DNA of 63,765 nucleotides, the filler included, from Reclinomonas americana ATCC 50394 (taxonomy: Eukaryota): assembly GCA_048213135.1 (NCBI GenBank). It is 20 parts of 20 records of this genome, joined end to end, with 100 filler letters (N's around TTAATTAATTAA, not from the genome) between each part and the next. Parts side by side here need not be neighbours in the genome. Positions count along the whole stretch, not along the records: positions 49,666 to 51,568 come from AFZH01024416.1; 19 more parts are not named here. One strand, given 5' to 3'. Shown here in pieces: positions 2,993 through 63,765 of this stretch. The notes below the pieces were generated by a model. That model did no database searches. It was not told the DNA's origin and saw only the letters and a program-made list of their open reading frames with translations. The number at the start of each line of letters is the position of its first letter. Position 1 is the first letter of the stretch. Position numbers and translations under genes: made by a program.

Positions 2993-3092
2993 NNNNNNNN
3001 NNNNNNNNNNNNNNNNNNNNNNNNNNNNNNNNNNNNTTAATTAATTAANNNNNNNNNNNNNNNNNNNNNNNNNNNNNNNNNNNNNNNNNNNN
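2993..3092. other. Artificial contig spacer (44 N + TTAATTAATTAA + 44 N); representative of 19 identical spacers
   Basis: Identical 100-bp spacers start at 2993, 6167, 9196, 16856, 18514, 22734, 26220, 29421, 31745, 33975, 35263, 39297, 41995, 45561, 49566, 51569, 55691, 61372 and 62593. TTAATTAATTAA is palindromic and places stops in all six frames. Confidence 0.99.
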
Positions 3093-5040: not shown

Positions 5041-7151
5041 GTGACTGTAATATATCAATTCGTGTTCGGACTGTACTTGCCAATCGCATGCGCAGGCAAA
5101 GTCGAATCCCGCATCCGCCAGACCTGGTGTATGCTTGAATCGGGTGTGCGGGGGAGTTCAAAAGGAACCTGATCATGAGTCATGCGCCACATCGGCCAGA
5201 CCTGGTGTGTGCTTGACTCGTGTTCAGCGGGAGTGCAAAATGAATCAGACGGCTGCGCAGCGATCAACTCCACTCAAAGTCGCGTGCACAACAGTGGCAA
5301 AAGCGATATTGACAGTATCAATTTTGTGGTCCGCTTTGAAAAGCAAGTGCTTCAAAGAGCTTGAGACCAGAGACGTACGGATTGGGCAGCTACTGGCCTC
5401 ATTGTCTCGCGCGCTGATGCGCAGAAAAATACGCAGAACTGAAGGCAGATGCTGTTTTGCAACGTTTTCCAACACTGCAGTAGCCTGTGTTGGCCTCATA
5501 AACGCGGCGTAAACGAGCGTGCCGTTGTTTTCTCTACAGATTGCAGTAGCGTCGGCACCTTGCGCCGGCGACATGCAGAAGATAACGCATGCGCAGTTGC
5601 ATGAAATATTCACAGCGGCTCTCAAATTTTTCACGTTGGATTGTGCGTCGTCAGGGAACAAGTTTTGTAGACTCTGTGAGGCGCAAGTGATAGAGCTCCT
5701 GGAGATCTCGCGATTGCTGTACTCAGAACTGACAAACGATCAAGTGCGAAAAAAAAAGTCGAATCAAGCACGGGGTGCGCCGGCGCAATGCTCGATTCGA
5801 GCATCCAGTCGAAATTTTTCCGAATGAAGTTTAAACTTGCTGTTGGTACACCAGATTAGTGGCTGCATAATGCACGTACGTATTCGCAACGCCACGAAGC
5901 CGAATGCCCCGCATTGTTGCTTGATTTCGACACAGTCGTGTTCGAATCACATGCGAAAATGTTCGAATCACGTGCGAAAATGCGCGAATGCAGCACAACT
6001 CTGACGCTATCGAACATCGGCCTCGCGGCGGCAATGTTCGAATAGGGTGTTCCATGGTCGTTGATGCCACGTACCCAGGGGGAGTGCAAAAACTGTCCCA
6101 CATGCATGTTTGGAGTGAGTCTTCATATTGTCATCATATCATGACACACACATGTACACTCTCTCTNNNNNNNNNNNNNNNNNNNNNNNNNNNNNNNNNN
6201 NNNNNNNNNNTTAATTAATTAANNNNNNNNNNNNNNNNNNNNNNNNNNNNNNNNNNNNNNNNNNNNTTCGAGTGCTGCAGCAGGTCGCGCTTTTGTTCGT
6301 GATTTGCGACCGCTTCTGTTGGCGCCTGCGACGTCCGTTGTAGGCAACAGCGACAGTGGTGGTCGCAGTGCAGTTGCTGACCATGACATGATCGAGACAG
6401 CAGCAGGGAGTGCTGCTGCTCAGCAACATGCCGACACCTTTGTTGCAATTGGTATCAGCGTGGGGACGCACGAGATTGGTCATGGTGAGAACTTGCTGCT
6501 GTGGGGCCGTGTTGATGTGCAGCTGGCTGCAATATCGATATCTGATGCGATCAGAAACCACCGTGCACAGACGCAGATGCCGGCGGCCGCGGTGGTGACC
6601 ATGAGCAAGACAACGGCAATAGCGCTGACGAAGATGGTGAGTGTCTTTTTGCAGCGCGGATACTCTCTCTCACGCACATCGTGAGAACTGTCAATAAGAT
6701 GACTGACGCATGCAATATACACACGTACTCGACAACACAGAATCAGCAACAGCGAGTGACGGTGGTGCGCATGCTGGCAAGAAGAATGGCAAGAAAAAGA
6801 GGGGCAAGAGTCGAAAGCAAAGGCAGAAGGAGGTGGATGGTTTGTAGTCTATCCTTCTTTGCGTATTTGTCGACATGTCGACAGCAGCATGCAGTAACTG
6901 ACATTATTGTGCATATATAGACACTATTGAGTTCCAACTCAATGGAGCAATATGCGAGGCCATCAATGCTTACGGCCAAGCGCCTCCCGGCGTGGACATC
7001 GACGCTGAATGCACACGCATCGCAAGAACAAGCAAATAAAAGTAGAACGATTGGAGACGACGAATTTGAAATGAGTTGGCTCCTGATCGTTCTACTCCAG
7101 AAACCTCAGTATGTCTAACAACAACTATCACTTACTCTTCTCTCAGAAATA

Positions 7152-23345: not shown

Positions 23346-26053
23346 ATGGCATCTGCTGCAGCGACTCTTGACATCGAGTCCGATGGACTCCCCCAGTCGG
23401 CCTCCATTGACTTTGACCACCCAGCCACCGCCAATCGCTCTCTCGTCGACCCGCGTCCACGCGCGGCCTCCACACGCAACTACCCCGAAATCCACACCGC
23501 AAGCTCCGCTGGCTCCAGCAGCCCCCCCTCTTCTCCAACTGCAGTTGCTCGCCCGCGCTCAGGCTCACGCATGATGCTGCCGCTGGGCGAGGGCGCAGGC
23601 ACCACTGACGATGGAGCAGCACCACCGCCTCCATTGGGACGCGCGCGATCGGGGTCTCGCATGGCGGGACACTCGGTGTTGGCGCCCGCCGAGGCCATGG
23701 CCGTTACTGCAGTTGAGTCGCTGCCGGACGAACACACTGTGGCGCCACTGGCGCAGCTGCCGCATGCGCCGCCGTGTGTGCTCTCGTGGAAGCACCTCAC
23801 GGTGTTTGCGCACTCGCGCAAGGCGCACGGCAAGCGCAAGATTGTGATCAATAACAGCTCTGGCCAGCTCTTTGGTGGCTTCACTGCCATTCTCGGGCCG
23901 AGTGGCTCCGGCAAGAGCACGCTGCTGTCGGCGCTGGCGTGTCGTCTGGATGGCAACATGGGCCTCGAAGGAGAAATGCGTTTCAACGGCGAGCGGTACT
24001 CGCTGGCCGACATGAAGGTCTCCGGCGGCTACGTCATGCAGCAGGATCTGCTCAATGCCAACCTGACCGTGGAGGAGACGCTGTACTACACGGCGCGTCT
24101 GCGTCTGTCGAGCACCATGTCGCAGGAGGATTTGGAGCGGCGGGTCGATGCCGTGCTCAAGCAAATGGGTCTGGCGCACACGCGCCACACGATTGTCGGC
24201 GGTGCGCTGCGCAAGGGTATCTCTGGTGGCGAGCGCAAGCGCCTGTGCGTGGCCATGGAGCTCCTCTGCAGCCCGTCGATGCTGTACATTGACGAGCCGA
24301 CCTCGGGTCTCGATTCGGTGACGGCGCTCTCCGTCTGCTCCTACCTCAAGCAGCTGGCCGAGCAGCGCATCTGCACGGTGATGATCTCCATTCACCAGCC
24401 GCAGGCCAGGATTTTTGAACTGTTCGGTGCGCTCTCCCACACCTCACCTCCTCGCCTCACCCAGTATTCTGTTCTTGTTGCTGATGAACTTGCAACCCGC
24501 AGATCAAGTGATTTTGCTGAACCACGGCGAGACGGTGTACCAGGGCCCCTCCAGCCAGGCCGTCGATTTTTACGCGCGTGCCGGCTTCCCGCTGCCGCCG
24601 TTCTGCAACCCGGCCGATCACATCATGGACGTGATCTCGCCCGACCTCGACCTGCTGGCCACCGACCCTGTTGGCGCGCGCCGTGTGGCGGCCGAGAACG
24701 AGGCCAGACTGCGCAGTCAGTTGGTGTTGCCCGACGTGGATCTCTCAGTCGGTGCCTCGATCGTCGAGTCCACTGCGCCGCTGGCCGCCGGCGCCAGCAA
24801 GACGTCGCCGTCGCAGGGCCACGGCCACGGCCCGCATGGCGATCACGGCCATCCACGCAAGACGGGCGACATTGAAGAGGGCGACTTGGATTCGGAGGCA
24901 ACCAAGGCGTTGAGGGCCAGCTGGTGGCGTCAGTACACGACGCTGCTCAATCGCTGCGGCCGCGAGCAGTGGCGCATGCGATTCAACTTGCTGGTGGGCT
25001 GGATTCAAAACATGATCCTCGCCGCCTTGATTGGCGGCGTGTTCTTCCAGATTGGCGACTCGCAGTCCAGCATTGTGCGCCGCACTCCACTGCTCTTCTT
25101 CTGCTGCATCAACCAGGGTCTGGCCGGTGCGCTGGCTGTCGTCAACTCGTTCCCAGCCGAGCGCGTGCTGTCGCTGCGCGAGCGTCTCGCCGGCACGTAC
25201 GTGGTGTCGGCCTACTATTGTGCCAAGATCACCGCCGAGCTGCCGATGCAGATTTTCACGCCGGTGAGTGTTGCTGAGTAGGTGGGAGGGAGGGATTGAT
25301 GATGGCCTTTGCGTTTTGCTGACCGTTGTGCACGGGCACCGCACACAGATCACCTTCAGTATAATTGTGTACTGGATGGCTGGCCTGCGTGGTGAAGGCG
25401 GTCCTTTTATCGTATTCGTGGTGTTTATGATCCTCTGCTCGCTGGCCGCCACGTCACTCGCGCTGGCCGTGTCGGCGCTTTGCCGCACGACATCGGCCTC
25501 GATGGCCGTGCTGCCGCTGTGGTTGGAGGTGTGTGTTGGCTGATCCAAGAGATCGATGTTTGACGGGAATACTCACTGCGTGATTTCTTGTGCCAGATTT
25601 GCCGTCTGTTTGGCGGTTTCTTCTTGTCGCCGGCCGCTCTGCCCAAGTACTTCTCGTGGCTGGTGCGTAATTCGTGCTGCAATATTTGTGTAGTGATCTC
25701 TGCGTCTCATCACTGCCATCGTCTTGTGTTACACAAACAGGATGCCCTGAGTTTTGTCAAGTTTCGTCAGTGATTCGGCCGCCTCGCCTCGTCTGGTATC
25801 ACACTGTGTTGCTTACCCTTCCCGCAGATACACATACGTGGGAATTGCGCTGAATGAGCTGCAAGACCTGCCGCTGACCTGCACCAGCGCGCAACTGGTT
25901 AACGGCTCGTGTCCCATCACCTCAGGAAACCAACCCATTGGCACTCTGGGCCTGGACTACATCTCCATCGGCGGGTGCGCCGGCGTGCTCATCGCTCTCA
26001 TTGTTTTCCTCCGTGTGGTGGCCTATCTCGGCATCCGCTTCCTCAAGACGTGA
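23346..26053 (+). CDS. ABCG / White-family half transporter, apparently complete, 6 exons
   Basis: Walker A GPSGSGKST, signature ISGGERKR, Walker B LYIDEPTSGLD, SIHQP, CNPADH, ER..RERLAGTY. Exons 23346-24426, 24503-25263, 25349-25528, 25597-25662, 25741-25760 and 25828-26053 are phase-consistent. Confidence 0.95.
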
Positions 26054-26617
26054 GCGAAGAGCGAGAGAGAGATAGAGCGAGTGGTGGTTTTTTGTTAGTA
26101 AGGCCCGTTTTTTGTCGTCCTTTCATGATTAGTGGTGTTATTTTATGAAAAGAGCCGTGTGTGTGGCATGCGAGGGAGAGGGAGAGGGAGAGAGGGAGAG
26201 AGAGAGAGAGAGAGAGAGANNNNNNNNNNNNNNNNNNNNNNNNNNNNNNNNNNNNNNNNNNNNTTAATTAATTAANNNNNNNNNNNNNNNNNNNNNNNNN
26301 NNNNNNNNNNNNNNNNNNNCATCACGCAATCAGGAATCGTGCCACCCCGGCCCGCTGGGACGCGTCGATCGGACAAGACCAAAGAGGCGGCCGGTCGAGG
26401 GCCGCTTGCATCGCCGACGAAACGGCCGTGCGTTGCCATCCAGGATCGAGCGAGCCGCGCCTCTCCTCAACGGCATGCCTGCTCCCCGGCAAACGATCAA
26501 TGTCCGGTTGTGCCGGATCTTGCCCGGACGAGCCACCCGTTGTTATCGATCGGGAACAGCGAGCAGCCAGCCCGCGCTTGGCGTGACGGCTGCAGCCGTC
26601 CACGCGAGCCAGCTCTG

Positions 26618-27568
26618 CTAGGCAGCGGTCAGGAAGCGCGTCACCGCGTCAAGGAACTCGGCCGGTCGCTCGACATTGAGCATGTGAACGCCCGGCAGGA
26701 GCACCAGCCTGGCGCCAGGAATCGTTGCAGCAATCTCCTCGCTGTGGCTGGCCAAGGTCACCTTGTCATCGATGCCGCCGATCACCAGGGTCGGCGCCTT
26801 GATCAGCGCGATCGTCCGGCGCAGGTCGCAATCGCGCAAGGCAGCAAAGCAGCCGGCGAGCCCTCGCGGCGGCGTCGCCAGGACCATGGCGCGGAAGGTG
26901 TCGACGATCTCGTTCGGGCCCGCCAGCATCGAGGCCGGGAACCAGTTGCGCATGAATTGGTCCGCCGTGTCCGCCATGTCCTTGACCGCGAGCACCGCCC
27001 GGATCTGCGCGTCGAAATTGGAAGGCGGCCCGAGATAAGCCGCGGTGTTGGAGAGGATGAGCCGGCCGATCCGATCCGGCGCATGGACGGCGAGCCACTG
27101 TCCGACCCAGCCCCCCATCGACAGGCCGCAGAAATGGGCCTGCTTGATCTCCAGTGAATCCAGCAGCTCGATCACGTCGCGCCCCAGCCGGTCGACCGAG
27201 TAGGCGCCAGCCGGCGTGTCGGACTTGCCGTGGCCGCGAAAATCATAGCGCAGCACGCGGTAGGCCTCCGACAGCGTCTGCACCTGCCCGTCCCACATAT
27301 GAAGCGAGGTGGCGATCGAATTCGACAGCACCAGGACGGGACGGTCGGCGCCGCCGGTCAGCTGATAGGCGATGCGGCAGCCGTCGCCGGCGGTGAAATG
27401 GCGGGTCTCGGTCATCTTGCTCTCATAGCTTGTCTGAGTTGGGTTGATGGCGTTCGGCGCTGCCCCGATGCTGGGACCGCCGGCCGACTGCGCTGCGGCC
27501 AGGCCTGGCGCCACGAGAGCGGAACCACCGAGTGCGATTGCGCCGCGACGCGTGACGAAACCCGGCAT
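26618..27568 (-). CDS. Bacterial alpha/beta hydrolase, 3-oxoadipate enol-lactonase (PcaD)-like
   Basis: VLVLSNSIAT, RYDFRGHGKSD, nucleophile GLSMGG, PTLVIGG.DD, HMLNVERP. Start is either 27568 (GGAAGGA upstream) or 27415. Confidence 0.9.
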   Translation of the reverse strand: MPGFVTRRGAIALGGSALVAPGLAAAQSAGGPSIGAAPNAINPTQTSYESKMTETRHFTAGDGCRIAYQLTGGADRPVLVLSNSIATSLHMWDGQVQTLSEAYRVLRYDFRGHGKSDTPAGAYSVDRLGRDVIELLDSLEIKQAHFCGLSMGGWVGQWLAVHAPDRIGRLILSNTAAYLGPPSNFDAQIRAVLAVKDMADTADQFMRNWFPASMLAGPNEIVDTFRAMVLATPPRGLAGCFAALRDCDLRRTIALIKAPTLVIGGIDDKVTLASHSEEIAATIPGARLVLLPGVHMLNVERPAEFLDAVTRFLTAA

Positions 27569-27677
27569 GCCGCATGTCCTTCCGATCAAATGGGGCCTTG
27601 CTCCGGCCGCCTCGGGGCCGGCGGCACGAGTGCCGGTCGCAGATATCGCTAGGCCAAGTCAGCATCGTAGAATATTA

Positions 27678-27707
27678 CTATGTTTCGACAATCTCTGTCG
27701 GAAATAG
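27678..27707. promoter_or_regulatory. Imperfect dyad between the divergent hydrolase and LysR genes; candidate operator
   Basis: CTATGTTTCGACA-ATCTC-TGTCGGAAATAG, immediately upstream of the likely LysR start. Confidence 0.45.
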
Positions 27708-27712
27708 AGACA

Positions 27713-28618
27713 TTGAGCGAACTGAAGCTTCACGATCTCAGGTGCTTCGACGCTGTCGCCAGTCAGGGCAGTTTTCAGGCCGCAGCGGTCGTCCTGAATC
27801 GCTCGCATCCATCGGTGTTCGCAGCCGTCGCCCGCCTCGAGCATGTGCTCAAGCTGACCCTGCTCGACCGCAGCGGCTACAGGGTGAGTTTGACGGAGGC
27901 CGGGGCGCTGTTTCATGCGCGCGCCCGGCTGATGCTGCGCGAGCTCGACCATCTGCACGGCTATGCCGATCAACTGGCGAGCGGCGAGGAAACGATCCTG
28001 CGCGTCGTTCTGGGCGATGTCTGTCCGCGGCCCTGCGCCCTACGCTTGCTCGGCCGGTTTTTCGCCCGCCACAACCGGACGCGTCTCCATCTGGAGTATG
28101 AAACGATCAACGGACCGCTCGAGCGCCTGCTGGAGGGTGATGCCGACCTGATCCTGCATCGCGCCGACCCGTCGGATCCGCGCCTCGAACGGATCGATCT
28201 TTGCACGGTGGAGTTCGTTCCGGTGGTGGCGCCGGGATTCCTGTCACTCACCCCAGGGCTTGCCATCACCCCCGAGCAGATGCGGCCTTACACCCAATGC
28301 GTCATCCGCGACACGGCGCGACAGCCGTCCCCTGACAGCTATTTCCTGATCGAAGGCTCGCAGCGCTGCTCCGTCCCGGACCATCAGATGAAGAAGGAGC
28401 TGATCCTCCACAGGCTGGCCTGGGGGCATCTGCCCGCATGGCTCATCGCCGAGGAGCTCAAGGACGGCAGGCTGCTCGCGATCGCCGGCGAACATCTGCC
28501 CGGCCGGGTCGAAACCGTTGCGGCGATACGCCGGCGCGATCGGTCCCATGGCCCGGTCGCGGAAGCGCTATGGCAGCATCTGCGGGCACAGCCAGCTTCG
28601 ATCACCCGCGATTTCTAG
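27713..28618 (+). CDS. LysR-family transcriptional regulator (bacterial)
   Basis: HTH LRCFDAVASQGSFQAAAVVLNRSHPSVFAAVARLE...LLDRSGYRVSLTEAG, about 300 aa, divergent from the hydrolase. Start is TTG 27713 or ATG 27680. Confidence 0.95.
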   Translation: MSELKLHDLRCFDAVASQGSFQAAAVVLNRSHPSVFAAVARLEHVLKLTLLDRSGYRVSLTEAGALFHARARLMLRELDHLHGYADQLASGEETILRVVLGDVCPRPCALRLLGRFFARHNRTRLHLEYETINGPLERLLEGDADLILHRADPSDPRLERIDLCTVEFVPVVAPGFLSLTPGLAITPEQMRPYTQCVIRDTARQPSPDSYFLIEGSQRCSVPDHQMKKELILHRLAWGHLPAWLIAEELKDGRLLAIAGEHLPGRVETVAAIRRRDRSHGPVAEALWQHLRAQPASITRDF

Positions 28619-28659
28619 GATCGCCCTGTCCGCCGCGCTTCGGGGTGTCAGGCACTCCT

Positions 28660-28830
28660 GGCCGTTGAGGAACGCGTCCTCCTGGTCGGGATTGCCGAGC
28701 CCGTGCAGCGTCAGCAGGTCGAGCACGCCGACGCGATAGCGCTCCTCGATCGCGTCGGCTAGTTGCTCGGGGGGTGCCCGCGACGGCCCAGTGTCCGGTG
28801 TCCTGCGCCGGGATGAGCTCGCGGAGGGCA
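28660..28830 (-). pseudogene. C-terminal remnant of an NtaA/DszA-type flavin-dependent monooxygenase
   Basis: LRELI...GHWAVAGTP/EQLADAIEERYRVGVLD, read across a one-base shift in the G6 run at 28769-28774. It resembles the GTPEQIAD.LEEW motif; the upstream body of the gene is absent. Confidence 0.55.
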
Positions 28831-28939
28831 GCCCGCGGCCAAAAAATCATAGTTTTCTATTGCCATGAGCGGGGGTAACGCGGCTTGTTCTGGTCGCAAC
28901 CGCCCCATGATTTGGCTCACTCCCTTCGGAGGATTTCCG

Positions 28940-29420
28940 TTGCACGCCGTCAGTTCAAGTCCGGCATTCGAAATGAAGGTCCTGGACCCTCGAATCCATG
29001 AATGGGGATTACCTCGCTACCAAACGGACATGTCGGCCGGGATCGACCTGTACGCCTGCGTCGATGAACCGATCGAGCTCCAGCCTCAGGCAGAGCCCGT
29101 CTTGATCCCATCAGGAATTGCCATCCTGATGAACAATGCGAACATGGTAGCCTTCCTGCTCGCCCGCTCGGGATTGGGGCACAAGAAGGGTCTTGTTCTT
29201 GGTCAGGCCGTAGGGACTATCGATGCCGATTATGCGGACCAGATATTCATCAGCGCTTGGCTCAGGAATCCTCCCGGCAGCGCCTCTTTGACTGTCAATC
29301 CCGGGGACAGGATCGCTCAGCTCGTCTTCCTGCCCATTGTGAGACCGGCATTTCGGATAGTCGAGGCGTTCAGCGCGACAACGGGCCGAGGCCGAGGCGG
29401 ATTTGGCTCCACGGGGGTCT
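28940..29420 (+). CDS. dut: Trimeric dUTPase; stop codon cut by contig end
   Basis: Motifs AGIDL, ARSGLG, GTIDADY, GDRIAQL and RGRGGFGSTG; GGAGGA precedes TTG 28940. Confidence 0.95.
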
Positions 29421-29520: not shown

Positions 29521-29745
29521 AACCGTCGCACCTCCTCGCCACTCTCCAGCGACCACACACGCACGGTACAGTCTCCACACCCACTCACTATCTGCTGGCC
29601 ATCTGGGGTGACGGCGACAGACCACACCGGACCAGTGTCTCTCTCCAGTCGTCGCACTTCTTCTCCGCTCGCCAGAGACCACATTCGAACGGTGCTGTCC
29701 ATGCATCCACCAACAATGTGCTGGCAATCGGGAGTTAAGAAGCGA
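29521..29745 (-). CDS. WD40-repeat protein fragment
   Basis: TPDCQHIVGGCMDSTVRMWSLASGEEVRRLERDTGPVWSVAVTPDGQQIVSGCGDCTVRVWSLESGEEVRR: two similar WD40 units. Confidence 0.8.
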
Positions 29746-29919
29746 GACCCTGAATGATCTGTGTTGATCACCCGCGGGTGAGACGCACATGCACAAACAA
29801 CAACCGCACACACGCACGAGCACACCAATGAACGCACAGACACCAACCACGCAAAAATGTGCATACATTCACACCTTTGTTGCCATTCTCCGTGCGTTGT
29901 GTGCGCGCGCGTGTGTTCG

Positions 29920-30000
<81 letters not shown>

Positions 30001-30823
30001 AGAAGCACCAACTCTGATTCATCCGACGGAACATCAACATCCTCTTTCTCTCGCGCGCGTGCGCCTCGCGGTGCTGTTTGTGTCTCAGTGCCCCCTGTCT
30101 CTCTGCGTCCTCGTCGTGGTGCTCCATTCTCCAACTGCGATGTGAGTGAGATGTTGCGGCATTGAATGTGCATGCATGCATGACGAGCCTGTTCCACTCG
30201 ACCCGCCATGAGCATCAACTCCCTCCGAGTCACGCACGTGAGTCGGGTGGAGAGGCAAGAACACACGATTCAGAAAGAGAGCCGGCGCCAAGAGGCAGCG
30301 CAACTCGTGTGTGGGTGCGTCACACCATTTGTTCAGGACACACACGCACGCGAGGGAAACGAGTGCGCAGGGCAAGTGCGCTCCCTCCCCGTGGCGTGTG
30401 TAACGAGAAGAGTGGCCGTCTGAATCCATGATTGATGCACTCTCCATGTTCATGCGGTGCCGGTGTGAGAATGGGAGGCGGAAATGACGCCACTGGCCGC
30501 TGCTTCAAAAAGCGACAGGCTGGCATCCACGCCGCGTTCGAATGACAAGGCGACATGAGGGGTGTGTTGGTTGGTGAAGGAGGACTCACTCAATGCCGAG
30601 TAGCATGCGTGTTAGTTCATTCCGTGGTCTCATCTCAATCGCCCACACCCATCCACACACACCTCGCACCCGGCATTCTCTTCTTGCACTCCCACTGCAC
30701 TGTGCTGTGCTGTATCTGCTTTCCGGCTGCCTGCACTTGGCACGTGCAAGGGTGAGGCGGTGTGGCGGTCAACAGGAGAGAGTCGCGCAGTGACAGCCAT
30801 CGGTCTTCGTACATTCATTGAGC

Positions 30824-38638: not shown

Positions 38639-39296
38639 TCAGTAAGGCATGCGATCGAGCACGCGTTCCATGAAGCGAATAATAATCTCCATCACCAGGT
38701 CGATGATTTTGTCTTCGCGAGACACACCACAGCATGTGAAGCAGCAGCAACAACAGCACAGGTAGAAACACAGATTGTGGTCGTTACGTTTGTGCAGGCG
38801 AATGTACTCGGCCGTTCGCAGCGCCTGGAGGGTCTCCTTCCACTCGCAAAAGAGAGTGGATCGCAACTCTGTGCAGTGAACCACCACGATTAGAGAAAGA
38901 AGTGGTGGCCCCTTTCCCACACCCAACGCACCATAGGGAAGCATGTACGACGTCACACGGCCACTCGCACACGCCGCCACCACCAGTGGACACGTCGTAA
39001 ATGTTTCCAGATTCACCATGTACGTGCCGTCGGAGACGGTCTGCCCACGGCAGTGCATCCAGATCTTTTGCGCTCTCGTCGTGTCGCGCAACAACTTCCA
39101 CACCATCATGGTGCCGTCGTCACTGCCGCTGACCAGAAAGCGCCCGGTGCTCATAAACGCAACAGAGTTCACACAGCCGGTGTGGCCGGATGCCATCAAC
39201 AGCACGGAGCGAGCTCGCACATCGAAAATCACCACGGCGCATCCGGGGGCCCCAGTTCCGGCGGCCAACATGGCGCCCGTTGGGTACCACGACAAA
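38639..39296 (-). CDS. WD40-repeat protein, 3' part
   Basis: SGHTGCVNSVAFMSTGRFLVSGSDDGTMMVW preceded by SWYPTGAMLAAG...VVIFDVR; helical C-terminus. Confidence 0.8.
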
Positions 39297-44998: not shown

Positions 44999-45663
44999 GC
45001 CTCACAAACAAACAAACACACACAAACCCGCTCACGCACGCACACAGCACAACTCTGGCGTGTGCGCGTGGAGGGCACACACACACACACGCACACTCTC
45101 TCTGCAGTCGCCACCAGCGCACGTGCGCGTGTGTTGAGAGAGAGTGTGAGTGTCAATCTGCGCAATGGAAAGAGAGAGTGATGAGCACAATGACGCGCAC
45201 AACTGTGTGTGTGTGCGTGTGTGTGCAAGAGAGAGAGTGAGAGACAAGAGAGCGCGCGTGTGTGCGCGTGTGTGTGTGAAAGAAAGAAAGGGATGGCGAT
45301 CTCGCGCGCAAACAAACACACACGCACAAACGCACACGCGCGCGCACACACCACTCACACACACTCGCACACACAGAGAGAGAGCGCGTCAGTCAAAGTG
45401 TGATTGTGAACTCACAAAGTGGCGGGAGTGCGGCTTGCCTTTTTGTGACAAAAGACAACTCTTTATGTGTCACTCGCGTTTATTTGTTTTTTTGCAATGT
45501 CAACTGTGAAAGAGGTATGCTTTTTGTGGTGTTTTCCTTGGTGTTTTGTGCTGAATGCGTNNNNNNNNNNNNNNNNNNNNNNNNNNNNNNNNNNNNNNNN
45601 NNNNTTAATTAATTAANNNNNNNNNNNNNNNNNNNNNNNNNNNNNNNNNNNNNNNNNNNNCTC

Positions 45664-45756
<93 letters not shown>

Positions 45757-46349
45757 TCTCTCCATCGCTCATGTCTTCTTCGGCAAAGATGCGTGCTCTT
45801 TGCGGCGACACGCAGCTTTCTTCCATCGCCGCCCTTCCCTCTCTGATGCACTCTTCAGAGGGTGGCGATCTGCACTCGTGCATCCGTTTCTCTCTCTCTC
45901 TCTCTCTCACTCTCTCACACACTCACTCCGTTGCTCACGTCTTCTTCGACAAGAAGACAGAAAGGAGATGTGTACTCGTTGCTGTGACACCCAGCTTTCT
46001 TCCAGCGTCGCCCTTCCCTCTCTCATACACCGTTCAGAGGGTGGCGATCTGCACTCGTGCATCCGTTTCTCTCTCTCTCACTTGTGCACGTCTTTTCGGC
46101 AAGAAGAGATGGAGAGATGCGTGCTTTCACAGTGTCCAGCACTCTCCCGCCATCACTCCCCCCGCGTACCGCCAAAGAGTGGCATCTACCTTTCTCACTC
46201 TTATCATAACAAAAAGGAAGAGCACATACATGGAGAACGCCACTGTGTCCTTGATCAGTTTCTCTCGTTCTCTCTCTCTCCCCTCACTCCCCTCTCTTCC
46301 CTCCTTCTCCCTCCTCGCTCTCCTCACTCCCTCCCCTGCCCCGCCGCAG

Positions 46350-46538
46350 ATCCGCGGCAAGCTGCATGCCTTTGATCAACACTTGAACATGGTGGTGGAG
46401 GACGTGGAGGAGACGGTGACCACGGTGAACATTCGCGACGACGGCACAGAAGAGGTGCAGACGACGACGCGACATGTACCAATGTTGTTTGTGCGTGGCG
46501 ACGGCGTGATTCTGGTGTCTCCACCCGTGCGCACGTGA
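46350..46538 (+). CDS. LSM3: U6 snRNA-associated Sm-like protein LSm3, last exon
   Basis: [24 protein letters not shown]...[16 protein letters not shown] after a polypyrimidine-CAG acceptor. Confidence 0.95.
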
Positions 46539-46689: not shown

Positions 46690-48633
46690 TTACAACTTGG
46701 CGCGCAACTGCAGGCGCATCTTGACCGGTCCCAGCTCCAGCACCTCCTTGGCCACGCGCTCTCCGCTCTCTAGCGCGCCCTCAATGTATCCGACCCACAC
46801 GCTGGCCGTCTCCGTGCCCGTCCAGTGGATGCGGCCGCAGGGAACGCGAAGCTGTGATGCCACCTGTGGGGGGTGCAGGGAAATGGTGCACAGTCAGTCG
46901 CGGAAGGGAGAGGGAAGAGAGAAGAGAGGGAAGAGAAAAGAGACGGGCAGATGCCCTCCCCAAAAAGAGCCACAAAGAGAGGGATGGCGAGGACGTAAAA
47001 GAGGCAACGGCTTTGGAAGCATGGACAGAATCCGCATGGGCAGAGAAGAAGCGCAATGTCGTGCATGCAACTGACATCGACGCATCTCATACCGCTGTCT
47101 CTCTTCCCCCTCACCATACCTCTCTGTGTATAGTCTCCCCACCTGTCACTCGGCCTTTCCCGCTATCTCCCTCATATTCACACAAAATTCACATGTGATT
47201 GTTATCCATGCATCACACACCGTTATCACCCGTAACCTTTGCCACTCTCTTTCTTTTGCCCTGTGAGTTCTCTGTACACCAACGGCATTTCTCTTTTCGC
47301 CCTCGCCACCCCTTTCTTTGTTCAGATGCGTCAACCAGCTGAAATCGTTGCTTCCCTTTCCCTCCCTACCCCCTTCCCCCTCTTCCCCCTCCCTTCCCCC
47401 CTCCCTTTCCCGTTACCCCACCCACCTCCTCATTCAATCCGGGCACCACATTCGCCACGTAGCAGCCGCGCGAGTGAATCTCCGACTGCCAATCGTCTGA
47501 TGTGTGCACACACACACACACACGAGTCAGCCACACACCACTCTCCCACTCCACTGGAATTATATTGAAGACGCAACGCATGGCCATGGCGAGCGGCTGC
47601 GCGGCCTCCTCGCCAAACCAGCCCACCAGCTGGTCAATCAGCTTCTTTCGCAGCTTCTCCCGCTTCGCCGGGCATCCCTCCACCGAGTTGGCGTCGGGGT
47701 TGGTGCCGGCACCGGCCCACTTGCGCGCGCTCTTGCCGACGAGGAAGCCGACCAACGCCGGGACCAGCGTGCCGTCCTTGCCGGGGAAGGAGTCGTCGTA
47801 GACGAGCGAGAAGCCGTCGCCGTCCGAGAGCACCTCGCCACTGAAGCCCTTGTTGCGCCAGAAGGGGTGGCTGTACAGCAGCAGAATCTGCCGCACAAGC
47901 ACGATTCAGGAAAAGAAACAAGAGACAAATCATCTCTCCCACGTACCTTGACGACGCTTCCCATGGGCATGTGCTGGAAAATGGCGTCGCGCGAGTACGG
48001 CAACGCCGGCTCGTACCAGATGCGGCCGGCAATAGGTGGCGGCACGGCCATGATGCACACTTGGCGCGCGTGCACCGCCGTGTAGCCCGAATCACTGTCC
48101 ATCTCCACGAGCACGCCGGTGGTTGGGCGGCCGTTGAGGGCACGCGAGGCCGCACGGCCCTGCAGCACGCGAGTCACGCGCGACTTGAGCAACAGTCGAT
48201 GCTGGGGGAGCTGGCTGGCGAGGCCCGTGGAAATCTGCATCATGCCACCGACCACGCGGTCCTGTTGCGCGCCGCCGTGGATGTTGGCCACATTGGCGTC
48301 TGACTCACATGAAGACAAAGAGTGAGACGAATCCCAAGCAGGAGGGCTAAACAGGGATGGATCACGCAACAGCCGCCGGTCTTGTTCAAAAACGTGGCAT
48401 AGTACGCCGGCGAAATCTGCTTCGGATCGCACGCATATACCGTGCGCAGCAGCAACGACAGAATGGTGCGCGCAAACGGCGTCTTCATCTCGCGCTGCAT
48501 GCGCGTCTCCATCGTTTCCTCGTCGGCGCTCTCTGGCACCGTCCCGTTCGGCACGTCCTTCAGAGCCATCACATCCAGTCGCTCGATCTCGGCGTCCAGG
48601 TCGGCGGCTGAGGTGCCGGCGCTGATGTTGCCG
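46690..48633 (-). CDS. Flavin-containing monoamine oxidase-like protein, 5' truncated, ending -AKL
   Basis: GGAQQDRVVGGMMQIS, PMGSVVK|ILLLYSHPFWR, SRGCY, RIHWTGTETA..W.GYIEGALESGER; TAA stop at 46692-46690. Confidence 0.92.
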
Positions 48634-49665
48634 CTGTGGGGAGAGGGAGGGGATGGACAGGGTGAGAAGAGGTGGAGGGGAGGGAGGCAATGAGAAGAGG
48701 TGGAGGAGAGGGAGTGGATGAGAAGGGCAGTGGCCTAGATACATATGAGGCAGTGAGTAAGAGGGACAGGAGTATCAACACGAGAGAGAATGTGCGTGAG
48801 AGAGAGAAGAAGAAGAAGAAGAAAGATAGAAAGAGAAAGGTGTCAACGGAGAGAAGGGACACCACGAAAACGATCTTCGTGTTGCACGAGAAGAGAGTAG
48901 AGATCAGAAAGAGAGTGCGCGACAGGAGAGGGAGAGGGAGAGGGAGAGAGACACAGAGGTACTAGAGAGAAGGACAAGTTGGTCACGGCGTCGACTCAAC
49001 CATCGACAACAGCAAGGAGGCAGCAAGCACGAGAAAGTGAGAGGCAAGCGCGCGCGCGCGCGCGAGAGAGAAAGGAACAGCAACAAGACGACAGAGCAGC
49101 GACCGTTGGCGTCGACTCAACCATCGACTGCAGCAAATGCAATGGCAGAGAGAGCCAAAGGGTGGCAGCAAGCAAGCACGAGAGAGTGTATGAGAGACAA
49201 AGCGAGAGATAAACAACAAGAACCAGACGAGAGAGTAGCGTCTATTCAAGCAACATCTGCGTCATCCACAGCGGAAGACAAGGGCAGACAGAGAAAAGCA
49301 GGCTGTGAGCACAACAAAGAGAGAGAGGCAAGGCAGAGAAATGAACAACAGCTACAAGACGACAGGCACCGCGTTCACGCGACAGCTCAAAGAGAGAGAG
49401 AGAAACAACACGAAACAGATGACGACTAGGCTGCAGAAGGCAAAGGGACACAAGCGTAAACAAGTAAACACTGCAGGATGAAGCGAGAGAGAGAGAGAGA
49501 GAGCGGAAGAAAAGAGAAACAGATGACGACTAGGCTGACAAAAGGCAAAGGGACACAAGCGTAAANNNNNNNNNNNNNNNNNNNNNNNNNNNNNNNNNNN
49601 NNNNNNNNNTTAATTAATTAANNNNNNNNNNNNNNNNNNNNNNNNNNNNNNNNNNNNNNNNNNNN

Positions 49666-51241
49666 TGTCAGTGCGGCGATTGTGGAGGCCGGCAGTCTGA
49701 GTGTGTCGAGTGCGTTGAGCTCGGCTGGCGTCATCAGCGGAGGGAGTGTGACGACGGCTGGCACACTGGAGAGCGGATCGCTGAGCACGTTCGGTGTGAT
49801 TAGCGGCGGCAGCTTGACGACGGCCGGGCGTGTCAGTGCGGCGATTGTGGAGGCTGGCAGTCTGAGTGTGTCGAGTGCATTGAGCTCGTCTGGCATCGTG
49901 TCCGGTGGCAGTGTGACGACGGCGGGCACATTGGAGAGCGGATCGGTCAGCACATTTGGTGTGATCAGTGGCGGCAGTGTGACGACGGTCGGTACACTGC
50001 AGAGCAGTTCAGTCAGCACCTTCGGTGTGATCAGCAGCGGCAGTGTGACGACCGCTGGTTCTCTGCAAGGCGGCAGCATCAGCACTCTCGGCGTGATCAA
50101 TGCCGGCGGTCTGATCACTGGCGGCAGCGTGACGACCGCTGGATCTCTGCAAGGCGGCAGCATCAGCACTGGGTCGAGCGTCTCCACGAGCTTTGTGACG
50201 CTGAGTACGAATTCGAGCAACCCAACTCCGCTGTCTGGGAGCATCACAGTGTTCTTTGATGGCAATGATGTTACGTGTTTTTTTTTTTCGCATCAACGGT
50301 TTCCTGTGTAATCTCCTTCTCATCTTCTTCGATAACGCAGCTCGTGTATCGCACAAGCAGTGCGACGAATTTCGTGGTCACTGCCAGCATGTCGGACGCG
50401 AAACTCAAGTCTAATGTGCGGCCCATTGAGAATGCACTCTCCGTGGTTCTGCGCCTGCAGGGTCGTCGGTACGAGTGGAATGAGGTTTGTGTTGCATCCT
50501 TCCGTCCACGGTACTTATTTTCTCCGTTCATTGGCGCTGACCGTGCCCAACAACTTGCAGATGTCTCGTGCCTTTGGCAAGACTGCAGGAAGCTCTGCCA
50601 TCGGTTTCATTGCGCAGGAGCTCGAGCAGCTGTTCCCGGAGTTGGTGACGGAGGTGACTGGTGTTCGCGGAGAGCGATTCAAGAAGGTGGACTACGGCCC
50701 TGTGGTTGCCGTTCTTGTGGAGGCCATTCGCGATCAGCAGGCCATGATGGTGGAGCGAGAGGAGCGGTTCCGCGAGCGGTTGGAGGAGGAGGTCGAAGAG
50801 AGGCTGGCGGAGGAGAGACGCCGTGATGCCGAGGAGCTCGAGGAGCGATTGGCCAAGGAGCGTGTGGCCGCGAAGCAGCGACTGGAGAAGGAGGTAGAAG
50901 AGAAGCTTGTGGAGGAGAGGCGTCGCAACACTGAGGAACTTCAGCAACGACTGGCAGAGGAGCGTGCGAATGTGCAGCAGGAGGTCGAAGAGAAGCTTGC
51001 CCGGAAGTTGGAGCAGCGGTTGGCAGAGGAGCGCTTGAACATGCAGCAGCAGCTGGCCGACCGCTCCGCAAAGGAACTTCGGCAACGACTGGCGGAGGAG
51101 CGTGCAAATGTGCAGCAGCAGCTTGCCGAGGAGAGACGCCGTGCCACCGAGCAGCTTGAGCAGCGACTTGCGGAAGAGCACTTGATCATGCAGAAGGCGC
51201 TCCGAGCCGGACTGCGCCAACTCATGGACGACAAGAAATAA
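49666..51241 (+). CDS. G/S/T/V-repeat fibre-like protein with a Peptidase_S74 intramolecular chaperone domain and coiled-coil tail; 5' truncated, 2 introns
   Basis: Exons 49666-50269, 50341-50484 and 50561-51241 give ...TASM-SDAKLKSNVRPIENALSVVLRLQGRRYEWN...IGFIAQELEQLFPELV...KKVDYGPVVAVLVEAIRD, matching the SDxRLK/GxIAQE/VxY pattern. Confidence 0.9.
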
Positions 51242-51292
51242 ACGTCCTGCAGTCCCACACTCATTTGTCCCTTCGTTTTCCTTACAAGTATC

Positions 51293-52585
51293 ATGCTGCG
51301 CGCTTTGGCCGTGCTCCTCGTGCTCCTCCACGTTGCGTCTCACCTCCTTGACACAAACACACAACAGAGAGAGACACCTAATGTAAAATTCGCGCAGGTC
51401 GCAGCTGCGTCGTCGTCGTTGTACGCGGCATTTGATGGCGCGCAGGCACTTGACACGCCCCCCGCCACTCATCTCTTCCGCTCTTCCTCTTCTTCCTCAA
51501 CAACAACAACAAGTGATGTTGTTGTGCTCAAGTCGGCGACTTCTGGTGCGGGCTTTGATCTGTTCCAANNNNNNNNNNNNNNNNNNNNNNNNNNNNNNNN
51601 NNNNNNNNNNNNTTAATTAATTAANNNNNNNNNNNNNNNNNNNNNNNNNNNNNNNNNNNNNNNNNNNNCCCCTCCTTCCCTCTCTCCTCCTCCTCCTCTC
51701 CTCCTTCCCTTCCCTTCCCTTCCCTTCCCTTCCCTTCCCTTCCTCTTCCCCTCCTTCCCCCTCCTCCCCCTTTTTCCCCCTCCTTCCCCCTCCTTCCCCC
51801 TCCTTCCCCTCTTCGCCTCACCCTCCCCACTCATCCCTCTCACACATAGCCCACCATGGACGGCCTCCACGTGGACGACGTCAGCACTCTCCTCTCCGAG
51901 GCCGGCGTCAAGGACGTGTCCTTTGACCGCGCCAGCCACGCCGTGGTGTTTGACGGTGCCGTCTTCCTCACCGTCGGCGACAAGGCCAACCGCAAGGTGC
52001 TGAATGAGCTGGTGGCGTTGGCCCGTCTGGCCGACACCCTGCCGACGACCGGCAACGTCTCGTTCTCCTTCTCGGGCCTGAAGGTGTGCCGTTCCCTTGC
52101 AATCTATCTCTTTCTTGTGATTTCTCTCATTTCTCCCCCCTTTGCCAGGCTCTCATCCGCCGCCTCGGTGGACGCACCGACGAGTACGAGACTGTGCGCG
52201 CTGCGTACGGCCAGCTGATCACCTCGTTCCTGGAGAAGACCGGCGCCCGCACGCTGACGTACGTGGCGGTGGTGGATGACTCGCGCAGCTCGACCGAGAT
52301 GACGCGCGAGCAGGCGGCCTTTGTGCAGTCGAACCTGCGCGTCAAGGCGACCAGTGGTGCCACCGTGACGACACCGCCGACGTGGCGAGTGAACAACTAC
52401 CAGCTCGGCGTGTGGACCATGATTGTGCTCTTTGTCGTCATGCTCGCCTTCACCGTCAGCACCTGCAACATGTCGAACTCCAAGGACTCGTACTCGCGCG
52501 AGGTAAGCATTGTCGCTGTCATGCTCTTTGTGTGGTGAGTGCGCTCTTAACATGGTCACTGCAGCTCTACCGCGACGAAATGTAA
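51293..52585 (+). CDS. ATP6AP2: ATP6AP2 / (pro)renin-receptor-like V-ATPase accessory protein; appears to span the spacer at 51569-51668
   Basis: Signal peptide MLRALAVLLVLLH.. and GFDLFQ lie before the gap. VLNEL...SFSGLK...G..TDEY, then NYQLGVWTMIVLFVVMLAFTVSTCNMSNSKDS..|LYR, lie after it and resemble the Renin_r TM and tail. Linkage across the gap is inferred. Confidence 0.68.
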
Positions 52586-62577: not shown

Positions 62578-62692
62578 AGAAGAAGGAGAGACNNNNNNNN
62601 NNNNNNNNNNNNNNNNNNNNNNNNNNNNNNNNNNNNTTAATTAATTAANNNNNNNNNNNNNNNNNNNNNNNNNNNNNNNNNNNNNNNNNNNN

Positions 62693-63695
62693 ATCGACAC
62701 TGGCCTACCGTTCGCGGCCATGTGGCGTCAGGCCACTTGCGCATCGTCGTCGTACCCGGACTACGTTCGGGCGTCGGCCACGGGAAGCAGGATCGACGAC
62801 AACAACTGGCATCACATTGGGTGGGACTACAACTGCAGCGACACGATTCTCCGCGTGTATGTGGACGGGCAGTTGGCCGGCACCTCGGCGGCAGTCATCA
62901 CCAACGGCAGCCAGTGCATCAATCCGAATATCAACAATGTTCCGTCGCCGCAAGGCAGTGGCTTCTTTGTCGGCGGCAGGCAGGAGATGTACGCCTCCAA
63001 TGGCGTGTCTCCATACTTTTGCACGCGCTCCCTGTCGGAGGGACGCTGGTTCACGGGCGTTCTCGACGAGCTTCGTTTCTCGACGAGCTCACGCGGTGCA
63101 GCGTACTACCAGCTGCAGTCGTGGTCCATGCAGCAGGTGCTGAACAACCAGTTCACGATGGTGGAGGCGCCGCTGTTCACCTACAGCACCATTTCGCCCG
63201 TTTCTGGTCCCTCCGGTTCGGCGGTGCGAGTGACGGGCACCACGTTTCCCAACACAGTTGATCTCGCGTGCTACGTCAACTCGCAGACACTGACAGCCAG
63301 CTACGTGTCGGCGACCGAGATTGTGTGCTGGGACTTGCCGACGCAGAGCAACGGGTCGCAGAGCACCGTGCTCATCATGTGGCAGAACGACGTGTACAAT
63401 CGGCCAACCTCAGCTCCGACATTCACGTGGGTGGTGCCGCCTGCAGTCACCTCGGTGAATCCGACACTCTCGTCCATCTATGGCGGCATCACGGTGACGG
63501 TGGTGGGTGGCACGTTCACCAGCGGTGGTCAGTTGGCCTGCCGTTTCGGCGACTCCGTGGTCACTGCCACGTACGGCAGCGGGTCACAGATCACGTGCAC
63601 GGTGCCGCCACGAGCGCGTGGCGGAAGTGTGACACTGTCGGCACGCGACGGCAGCAGCACTTTGTGGGGTGCCGGTGTCTCGTTCACTTTTGTCG
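62693..63695 (+). CDS. Internal exon of a large extracellular protein: LamG/concanavalin-like domain plus two IPT/TIG domains (absent from the ORF track)
   Basis: The frame starting at 62693 is open for 334 codons up to the donor G|GTGAGT. It reads DDNNWHHIGW...LRVYVDGQL...FTGVLDELRF (LamG), then ISPVSGPSGSAVRVTGTTF and VTSVNPTLSSIYGGITVTVVGGTF...CRFG...ITCTVPP (IPT). Confidence 0.88.
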
Positions 63696-63765
63696 GTGAG
63701 TTGTTTTATTTTTCCGTGCTCCGTTCAGTCCATCAGTGTGTGTGCGATTTCTCCGCTGAGCTGAC

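Follow-up and report, generated by a model that had tools for sequence, protein, structure and literature searches.

To our knowledge, the Peptidase_S74/ICA domain is known functionally in eukaryotes only from MYRF-type transcription factors, and otherwise occurs in viruses that infect eukaryotes. In phage tail fibres and tailspikes (S16 gp37, 6f45; K1F endosialidase; GA-1 gp12, 3gud), the domain comes after a repetitive fibre stretch, bears an S-D-x-x-x-K dyad motif and is followed by a C-terminal helix; the Ser–Lys dyad is described as the self-cleavage machinery in the available parts of PMC3742443 and PMC8326128. Here we report on a gene with the same layout in the protist Reclinomonas americana ATCC 50394 (assembly GCA_048213135.1), on one short contig (49666–51568, hereafter the S74 contig) of a stretch of 63,765 nucleotides (nt) that we analysed as a whole and call the window. 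The gene differs from the phage proteins in having two predicted spliceosomal-type introns, one of them inside the domain, and a eukaryotic context, as well as a different type of repeat and a predicted helix of 180 residues, where 134 relatives have tails with a median length of 40. We conclude that it is probably a resident, intron-bearing nuclear gene of the protist, seen here in its 3′ part, that encodes a phage-type self-cleaving fibre pro-protein. Such a location is uncommon but not unprecedented for a phage-fibre folding module. The components are all known, as are S74 fibre genes inside protist assemblies.

Three other groups of proteins carry the domain in comparable settings. The most similar S74 domains (65–78 bits, at most 50% identity over around 100 residues) belong to 'tail fiber domain-containing proteins' of Bacteroidota and other phyla, but these have unrelated N-terminal parts, short tails and no introns. 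MYRF and Dictyostelium MrfA (7dc3) are, like the window gene, eukaryotic nuclear genes that carry an ICA domain. In the available part of PMC8326128, the C-terminal helix of MYRF is described as four heptads that form a triple coiled coil driving trimerisation, and the window gene has a predicted helix in the corresponding place; unlike MYRF, however, it has a repeat fibre in place of the short stalk, no transmembrane segment after the domain and no NDT80 domain in the 218 visible residues before it. Fibres of polinton-like viruses, virophages and giant viruses, as presented in the available parts of PMC12220804 and PMC13620141, are likewise modular with a terminal S74 domain and often lie inside protist genome assemblies, whereas the window gene has host-style introns, a gene with a signal-peptide-like start 51 nt downstream, no hallmark gene in view and 29–33% identity to the domains of giant-virus metagenome-assembled genomes (MAGs).

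The coding model comprises three exons (49667–50269 + 50341–50484 + 50561–51241) and 475 visible residues. Its features, in order along the plus strand, are as follows.

49566–49665, unstranded: artificial linker (N44-TTAATTAATTAA-N44) before the S74 contig, at which the 5′ end of the gene is lost
49666–49992, plus strand: 165-nt tandem duplication (2.0 copies, 87% matches; Tandem Repeats Finder and a repeat finder)
49667–50269, plus strand: exon A, 5′-truncated, 201 codons in the frame of the open reading frame (ORF), with the 22-amino-acid (aa) repeats and then a non-repeat stretch ending ...VFFDGND
49726–50170, plus strand: five units of 64–66 nt (22 aa), starting at 49726, 49891, 49957, 50023 and 50107
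50270–50340, plus strand: predicted intron 1 (model), GT..AG, 71 nt, phase 0, GC 0.39, T 0.45
50341–50484, plus strand: exon B, 48 codons, encoding the last stalk residues and the first (N-terminal) half of the S74/ICA domain
50392–50409, plus strand: predicted autocleavage motif S-D-A-K-L-K, 17 residues into exon B, with Ser219 as nucleophile and Lys224 as base
50485–50560, plus strand: predicted intron 2, GT..AG, 76 nt, phase 0, GC 0.51, inside the S74 domain
50561–51241, plus strand: exon C, 226 codons and a TAA stop, encoding the second (C-terminal) half of the S74/ICA domain (GFIAQE...VDY) followed by the long helix
50696–51235, plus strand: predicted unbroken α-helix of 180 residues (AlphaFold2 monomer, exon-C residues 46–225; block-mean predicted local distance difference test (pLDDT) 91–98)

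The S74 contig is 1,903 nt long with a GC content of 0.58. Position 49666 is a contig edge behind a linker, which the preliminary description of this DNA had overlooked, and because the assembly break falls within the gene's own repeats, the gene lacks its 5′ part.

Identification of the domain drew on several profile collections. PF13884 matched exon B over profile positions 1–32 of 58 (32.3 bits, cut-off 22) and exon C over positions 42–58 of 58 (19 bits). Among the PHROGs, 11 families matched exon B (10 of them tail-type) and 19 matched exon C (17 tail-type; phrog_5668, E = 4.8e-12). Compared with nine S74 proteins, the protein spliced in silico scored 55.6–71 bits, whereas exon C alone scored 37–40. 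Although neither single exon matched any PDB chain, MYRF included, at E values up to 1, a family profile built over both exons matched the S16 gp37 fibre (6f45, 1.1e-20) and MYRF (7dc3, 7.3e-16), along with the tail fibre 8jov and GA-1 gp12 (3gud). The motifs M-SDAKLK, GFIAQE and VDY, which had been read from the DNA at the outset, are all present, and the Ser, Asp and Lys of SDAKLK (S18, D19 and K23 of exon B) occupy columns that are at least 90% conserved in an alignment with 13 relatives (A1). By these sequence comparisons, a genuine Peptidase_S74/ICA domain with an intact Ser–Lys dyad is confirmed, and cleavage would be expected between Met218 and Ser219.

The three coding pieces occupy three different reading frames. 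An intron between the first two is required in the model because the repeat frame stops at 50309–50311, whereas that of the S74 domain is open only from 50269 onwards; of the frame-keeping GT–AG pairs available, the 71-nt version has the lowest GC content and a host-like length, and its borders are taken as the best model. Intron 2 is well supported in silico, because the two halves of the domain differ in frame yet match the same profiles collinearly. Three PHROG families run across this junction (phrog_5668, 1454–1496 then 1498–1559 of 1567; phrog_8215, 906–939 then 940–986; phrog_18186, 474–516 then 516–569), and three of the eight alignments examined (P0001, P0002 and P0006) pass over it without a gap. 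A GCTGAC motif resembling a branch site lies around 25 nt before the AG of intron 2. Both predicted introns are T-rich and, at GC contents of 0.39 and 0.51, lie below the 0.58 of the contig. Rfam gave no match anywhere in the window, and hence no hint of self-splicing introns. The predicted exon structure is consistent with splicing, and the original proposal of a spliced gene in eukaryotic DNA is supported by the frame changes and the host-like style of the putative introns.

A point of comparison for host introns was provided by a host gene for an ABCG-type half-transporter elsewhere in the window (23622–26050), which has at least three to four introns of 62–85 nt and a TGA stop. Its introns share a GT...CTGA...AG look with those of the S74 gene, in which segments of 71 and 76 nt, each bounded by GT..AG, restore the reading frame when removed. 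The GC content of the S74 contig (0.58) also falls within the range spanned by the other 17 non-Bosea contigs (0.51–0.61). The transporter is only 40–64% identical to the relatives listed, of which the named ones come from green algae, bryophytes, chytrids, rotifers and stramenopiles; because these are distant and scattered, the lineage seems to be one without close sequenced relatives. An ARAGORN call of tRNA-Val (23577–23668) at the 5′ edge of the transporter homology region, where alignments begin at 23622, is probably false.

Upstream of the domain, the exon A product is a fibre-like region of Ser-, Gly-, Thr- and Val-rich 22-residue units, as had been proposed, and the repeat-finding programs recovered both these units and the 165-nt duplication. 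The unit is GVISGGSVTTAGTLESGSLSTF and variants of it, with the consensus G-V-I-S-G-G-S-V-T-T-A-G-T/S-L-x-S/G-G/S-S-V/I-S-T-F; residues 1–201 contain 26% Ser, 18% Gly, 13% Thr, 11% Val and no Cys. The two 165-nt copies differ at 25 nt and 7 aa, and the resulting ratio of non-synonymous to synonymous change (dN/dS, around 0.22) indicates that the repeat frame has been constrained since the duplication. Exon A matched no Pfam family above cut-off (the best, FapA, reached 20.3 bits against a required 31) and no PHROG or NCBIfam family. Relatives of the repeats were also absent among 8,000 word-sharing candidates that were scored (353–2,000 aa) and among 597 pattern matches in metagenome contigs; in the protein atlas the top score was 0.88, under the useful level, and this repeat type was found in none of 172 S74 proteins or the ORFs of the other sampled loci. 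A profile of the 22-aa unit, run against 1,946 sequences, had a single match (18 bits): a fibre-like ORF (L001:2500–3609) on a 114.5-kb viral contig, which aligns to the repeat region at 39% over 94 aa (32 bits) and has the motif S-G-G-x-x-T-T-A-G-x-L in common with the units. The likeness is weak and may be compositional.

Downstream of the domain, the predicted helix is rich in Glu (24%), Arg (17%) and Leu (14%), contains RLAEE five times and is itself repetitive, its units being 34 and 23 residues long in the protein and 102 and 69 nt in the DNA. Tail lengths were compared in 134 sequences with a usable last S74 domain, taken from the best 150 of the 743 matches described below: after the conserved Tyr, the window protein continues for 181 residues against a median of 40, and 5 of the 134 reach 180. 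The tail is therefore unusually long, as first suggested, but not unique. The most fitting view is that it greatly lengthens the ICA C-terminal helix. One of these five, P0137 (393 aa, metagenomic or transcript-derived), has an S74 domain followed by around 200 residues of an Ala/Glu-rich, helix-like tail; in a quick tree it adjoins giant-virus MAG domains (loci L014 and L030) with support of 85 and long branches.

A HMMER search with exon C across 1.84 billion representatives returned 743 matches at E ≤ 0.001, none of them below 1e-10. Nearly all of the best 150 of these were confined to query residues ~3–110, the S74 half, and P0137 was the only one of that set to extend to query residue 199. 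When rescored with the spliced protein, single domains gave 65–78 bits, and the best domain identity was 50% over 100 columns. Those cluster members that have names are annotated as 'tail fiber domain-containing proteins' and are bacterial, from Flavobacterium (WP_264533947.1) and from a Zixibacteria MAG. Scans of prokaryote genomes yielded 64 loci with 26–60% identity, mostly in Bacteroidota, and scans of viral contigs yielded 42 loci, with a top full-domain identity of 45.6% (L012); three giant-virus MAG contigs (L014, L030 and L040) carry S74 domains that are 29–33% identical. No near-identical bacterial or viral sequence was present in the 743 matches, the 64 genome loci or the 42 viral loci, and a tblastn search of the window with the spliced protein recovered only the gene itself. 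As a check on origin, the preliminary description had proposed a phylogeny that included MYRF; the tree that was built, by a quick method and from 178 S74 domains other than those of MYRF, places the window sequence in a polytomy, so the donor cannot be named, and no supported clade in it unites the bacterial tail fiber domain-containing proteins with the window gene.

By analogy with the family, the ICA domain and the long helix would bring three chains together, and the trimer would template the folding of the 22-residue repeats into a trimeric, β-structured fibre. The Ser219–Lys224 dyad would then cut between Met218 and Ser219, freeing the fibre from a 257-residue fragment made up of the ICA domain and the helix. 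That the chains trimerise and are cut, and how the repeats fold, is inferred from what the family does elsewhere; the role as an adhesin, extrusome or coat component suggested at the outset is conjectural, as are the site of the product in the cell and whether it benefits the host or an integrated virus. The module was probably acquired horizontally, its source being bacterial, a phage or a eukaryotic virus, with host-type introns later gained or kept.

Several observations weigh against a resident fibre gene of the protist. The S74 contig is only 1.9 kb long and truncated in the repeats. Eukaryotic and bacterial origins cannot be told apart by codon usage (r = 0.69 versus 0.66). The borders of intron 1 are not unique, as 21 GT–AG pairs keep the frame; of the two GT–AG introns first described, both have the GT and AG ends and intron 2 is collinear within the S74 domain, but the exact extent given for intron 1 is one choice among these pairs. 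The constraint seen in dN/dS could predate integration and have acted in a donor virus. An AlphaFold2 monomer of the repeats gave no confident model (pLDDT 48.5), for which reason it was kept out of the fold search. At position +3 of the cleavage motif, most relatives have Arg and the window protein has Lys, a residue that it shares with P0141 and P0146, two of the 13 homologues in A1. The hydrophobic period of the helix is around 3.8, compared with 3.5 in a canonical coiled coil; from the (RLAEER)n coiled coil of the preliminary description we therefore retain the long RLAEE-bearing helix (pLDDT >90) and not the coiled coil itself. Finally, S74 fibre genes in integrated viruses are already known, and endogenous giant-virus elements show a host-like GC content and 25–72 predicted spliceosomal introns, according to the available part of 10.1101/2021.11.30.470594.

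These last points bear directly on the possibility that the gene belongs to an endogenous virus (polinton-like virus, virophage or giant-virus element) and encodes its fibre, being either still viral or a decaying remnant. S74 fibre genes are ubiquitous among the polinton-like viruses that reside in protist genomes as integrated elements and are enriched in giant-virus genomic islands, as far as the available parts of PMC12220804 and PMC13620141, respectively, describe them; S74 domains occur on the three giant-virus MAG contigs noted above, and the sole weak relative of the repeats is an ORF on a viral contig. Yet the identity to the giant-virus MAG domains (29–33%) is below that to bacterial or metagenomic ones (45–50%), the gene that begins 51 nt downstream has a signal-peptide-like start and is plausibly of the host, and none of 247 ORFs of at least 110 aa elsewhere in the window contains a viral hallmark domain (capsid, packaging ATPase, integrase or polymerase), with the proviso that its contigs may not be neighbours. 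Moreover, the introns that PMC12220804 describes in polinton-like viruses are of group I, and the paper does not use the word 'spliceosomal'. We consider a viral fibre gene, the main rival, unlikely. Introns alone do not prove domestication, however, because endogenous giant-virus elements carry spliceosomal introns, and the word 'domesticated', used at the outset, is unsupported given that integrated viruses combine S74 fibres (PMC12220804) with introns and a host-like GC content (10.1101/2021.11.30.470594), in the parts of these sources that are available.

A non-eukaryotic origin, whether as a bacterial or phage contaminant contig with a frameshifted pseudogene or as a chimeric mis-assembly, has some grounds in the assembly itself: 2 of the 20 contigs (16956–18513 and 26320–29420) are 99% identical to the genome of Bosea vestrisii and encode a DnaA N-terminal domain, a LysR regulator, an alpha/beta hydrolase and a dUTPase; the nearest S74 domains are bacterial; and the S74 contig is short and ends inside repeats. 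Against this, the remaining 18 contigs, the S74 contig among them, have merely short chance matches to the Bosea genome (44 nt in the case of the S74 contig), in which no PF13884 member was found. The S74 contig does not derive from the Bosea contaminant, and the earlier suggestion that it be checked for binning with a bacterium has an answer in this respect. In addition, each change of frame falls at a T-rich GT...AG segment as long as a host intron, excision of the two restores a collinear domain, and no close bacterial or viral relative exists in the representatives, the 64 genome loci or the 42 viral loci. Contamination or mis-assembly is thus very unlikely. Least probable, to the point of being nearly negligible, is a divergent membrane-tethered transcription factor of the MYRF/MrfA type whose NDT80 domain would be encoded beyond the 5′ break. 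MYRF is the known eukaryotic ICA carrier, its structure is matched by the family profile that includes the window gene, and the ORF with a hydrophobic start follows in frame behind a single TAA. But that common frame is a 1-in-3 coincidence, the 51-nt spacer being open in all frames; the protein ends in a charged helix, with no transmembrane segment between the ICA domain and the stop (the best 19-residue Kyte–Doolittle window scores 0.95); the upstream residues, at least 218 of them, include fibre-type repeats and no NDT80 match; and neither exon alone matches MYRF. The gene therefore does not look like an ordinary MYRF-like gene, in line with its first description.

For a resident gene of the protist, a stronger version can be put forward tentatively, which we regard as possible but on balance doubtful: that the protist co-opted a viral or bacterial self-cleaving fibre gene, so that eukaryotes would have co-opted the ICA domain independently twice, once in MYRF and once here, with the fibre-building job kept and a helical rod of ~27 nm gained on the released fragment. 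The fibre could then be, for example, a cell-surface or secreted filament, and the rod might serve some further purpose, for instance in tethering or in the timing of release. In the main texts of the literature searched, we found no intron-bearing host gene other than MYRF with an S74 fibre architecture. A host-style fibre gene would indicate that eukaryotes can retain the ICA domain in its ancestral fibre-building role and would offer a handle on the question of how viral structural genes turn cellular, and the very long helix could tell whether the 'discarded' chaperone fragment gains a function.

The region behind the S74 gene and the joints of the window contain the following further features.

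51242–51292, plus strand: pyrimidine-rich spacer of 51 nt, ending ...CCTTACAAG, open in all three frames
51293–51568, plus strand: start of a downstream gene with a signal-peptide-like N-terminus (MLRALAVLLVLLHVAS...), in frame with the S74 ORF, running off the contig
2993–3092, 6167–6266, ... 62593–62692: 19 artificial linkers of 100 nt (N44-TTAATTAATTAA-N44), with stops in all frames

The distance of 51 nt to the following ATG (51293) agrees with the original description, and a gap of this size between genes on the same strand implies a very compact or overlapping transcript organisation. The first residues of the downstream ORF are strongly hydrophobic and may form a signal peptide or possibly a membrane anchor. 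Read-through of the S74 TAA into this ORF was considered and set aside: because the spacer is open in all three frames, the common frame is probably a 1-in-3 coincidence. The label 'ATP6AP2-like', given earlier to the ORF at 51293, found no support in that ORF, which matches no Pfam and no NCBIfam family. Resemblance to the Renin_r (ATP6AP2) clusters was found instead on the next contig, for an ORF at 52149–52535 and by language-model features only (0.92, 206 shared features), with no Pfam or PDB match; an 'ATP6AP2-like start' is thus plausible only if the S74 contig and the next contig are true neighbours. The gene to which that ORF belongs (51856–52535) has a 65-nt GT–AG intron (52084–52148) and a C-terminal membrane segment. 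The ATGs at 51293 and 51856 are each immediately preceded by a pyrimidine-rich tract with a terminal AG (51242–51292 and 51669–51855); these tracts could be 3′ splice sites, in cis or in trans, or compact promoters.

The window as a whole is no single stretch of chromosome: it joins 20 contigs of 1.1–7.6 kb each, and contigs that lie side by side in it need not adjoin in the genome. Six ORFs in the other frames and on the antisense strand of the S74 contig matched no Pfam family. Upstream of the linker that precedes this contig lies around 1 kb of purine-rich (GA) low-complexity sequence (48600–49565), with a direct repeat of around 50 nt near the contig end. Six coding pieces of eukaryotic type were seen elsewhere in the window: a TMEM260-like O-mannosyltransferase (13117–14418, minus strand), two with WD40 repeats (29523–30269 and 38642–39295, both on the minus strand), one with an LSM domain (45663–46535, plus strand), a fragment of an amine oxidase (47641–48774, minus strand) and a piece with an IPT/TIG domain (62693–63763, plus strand).

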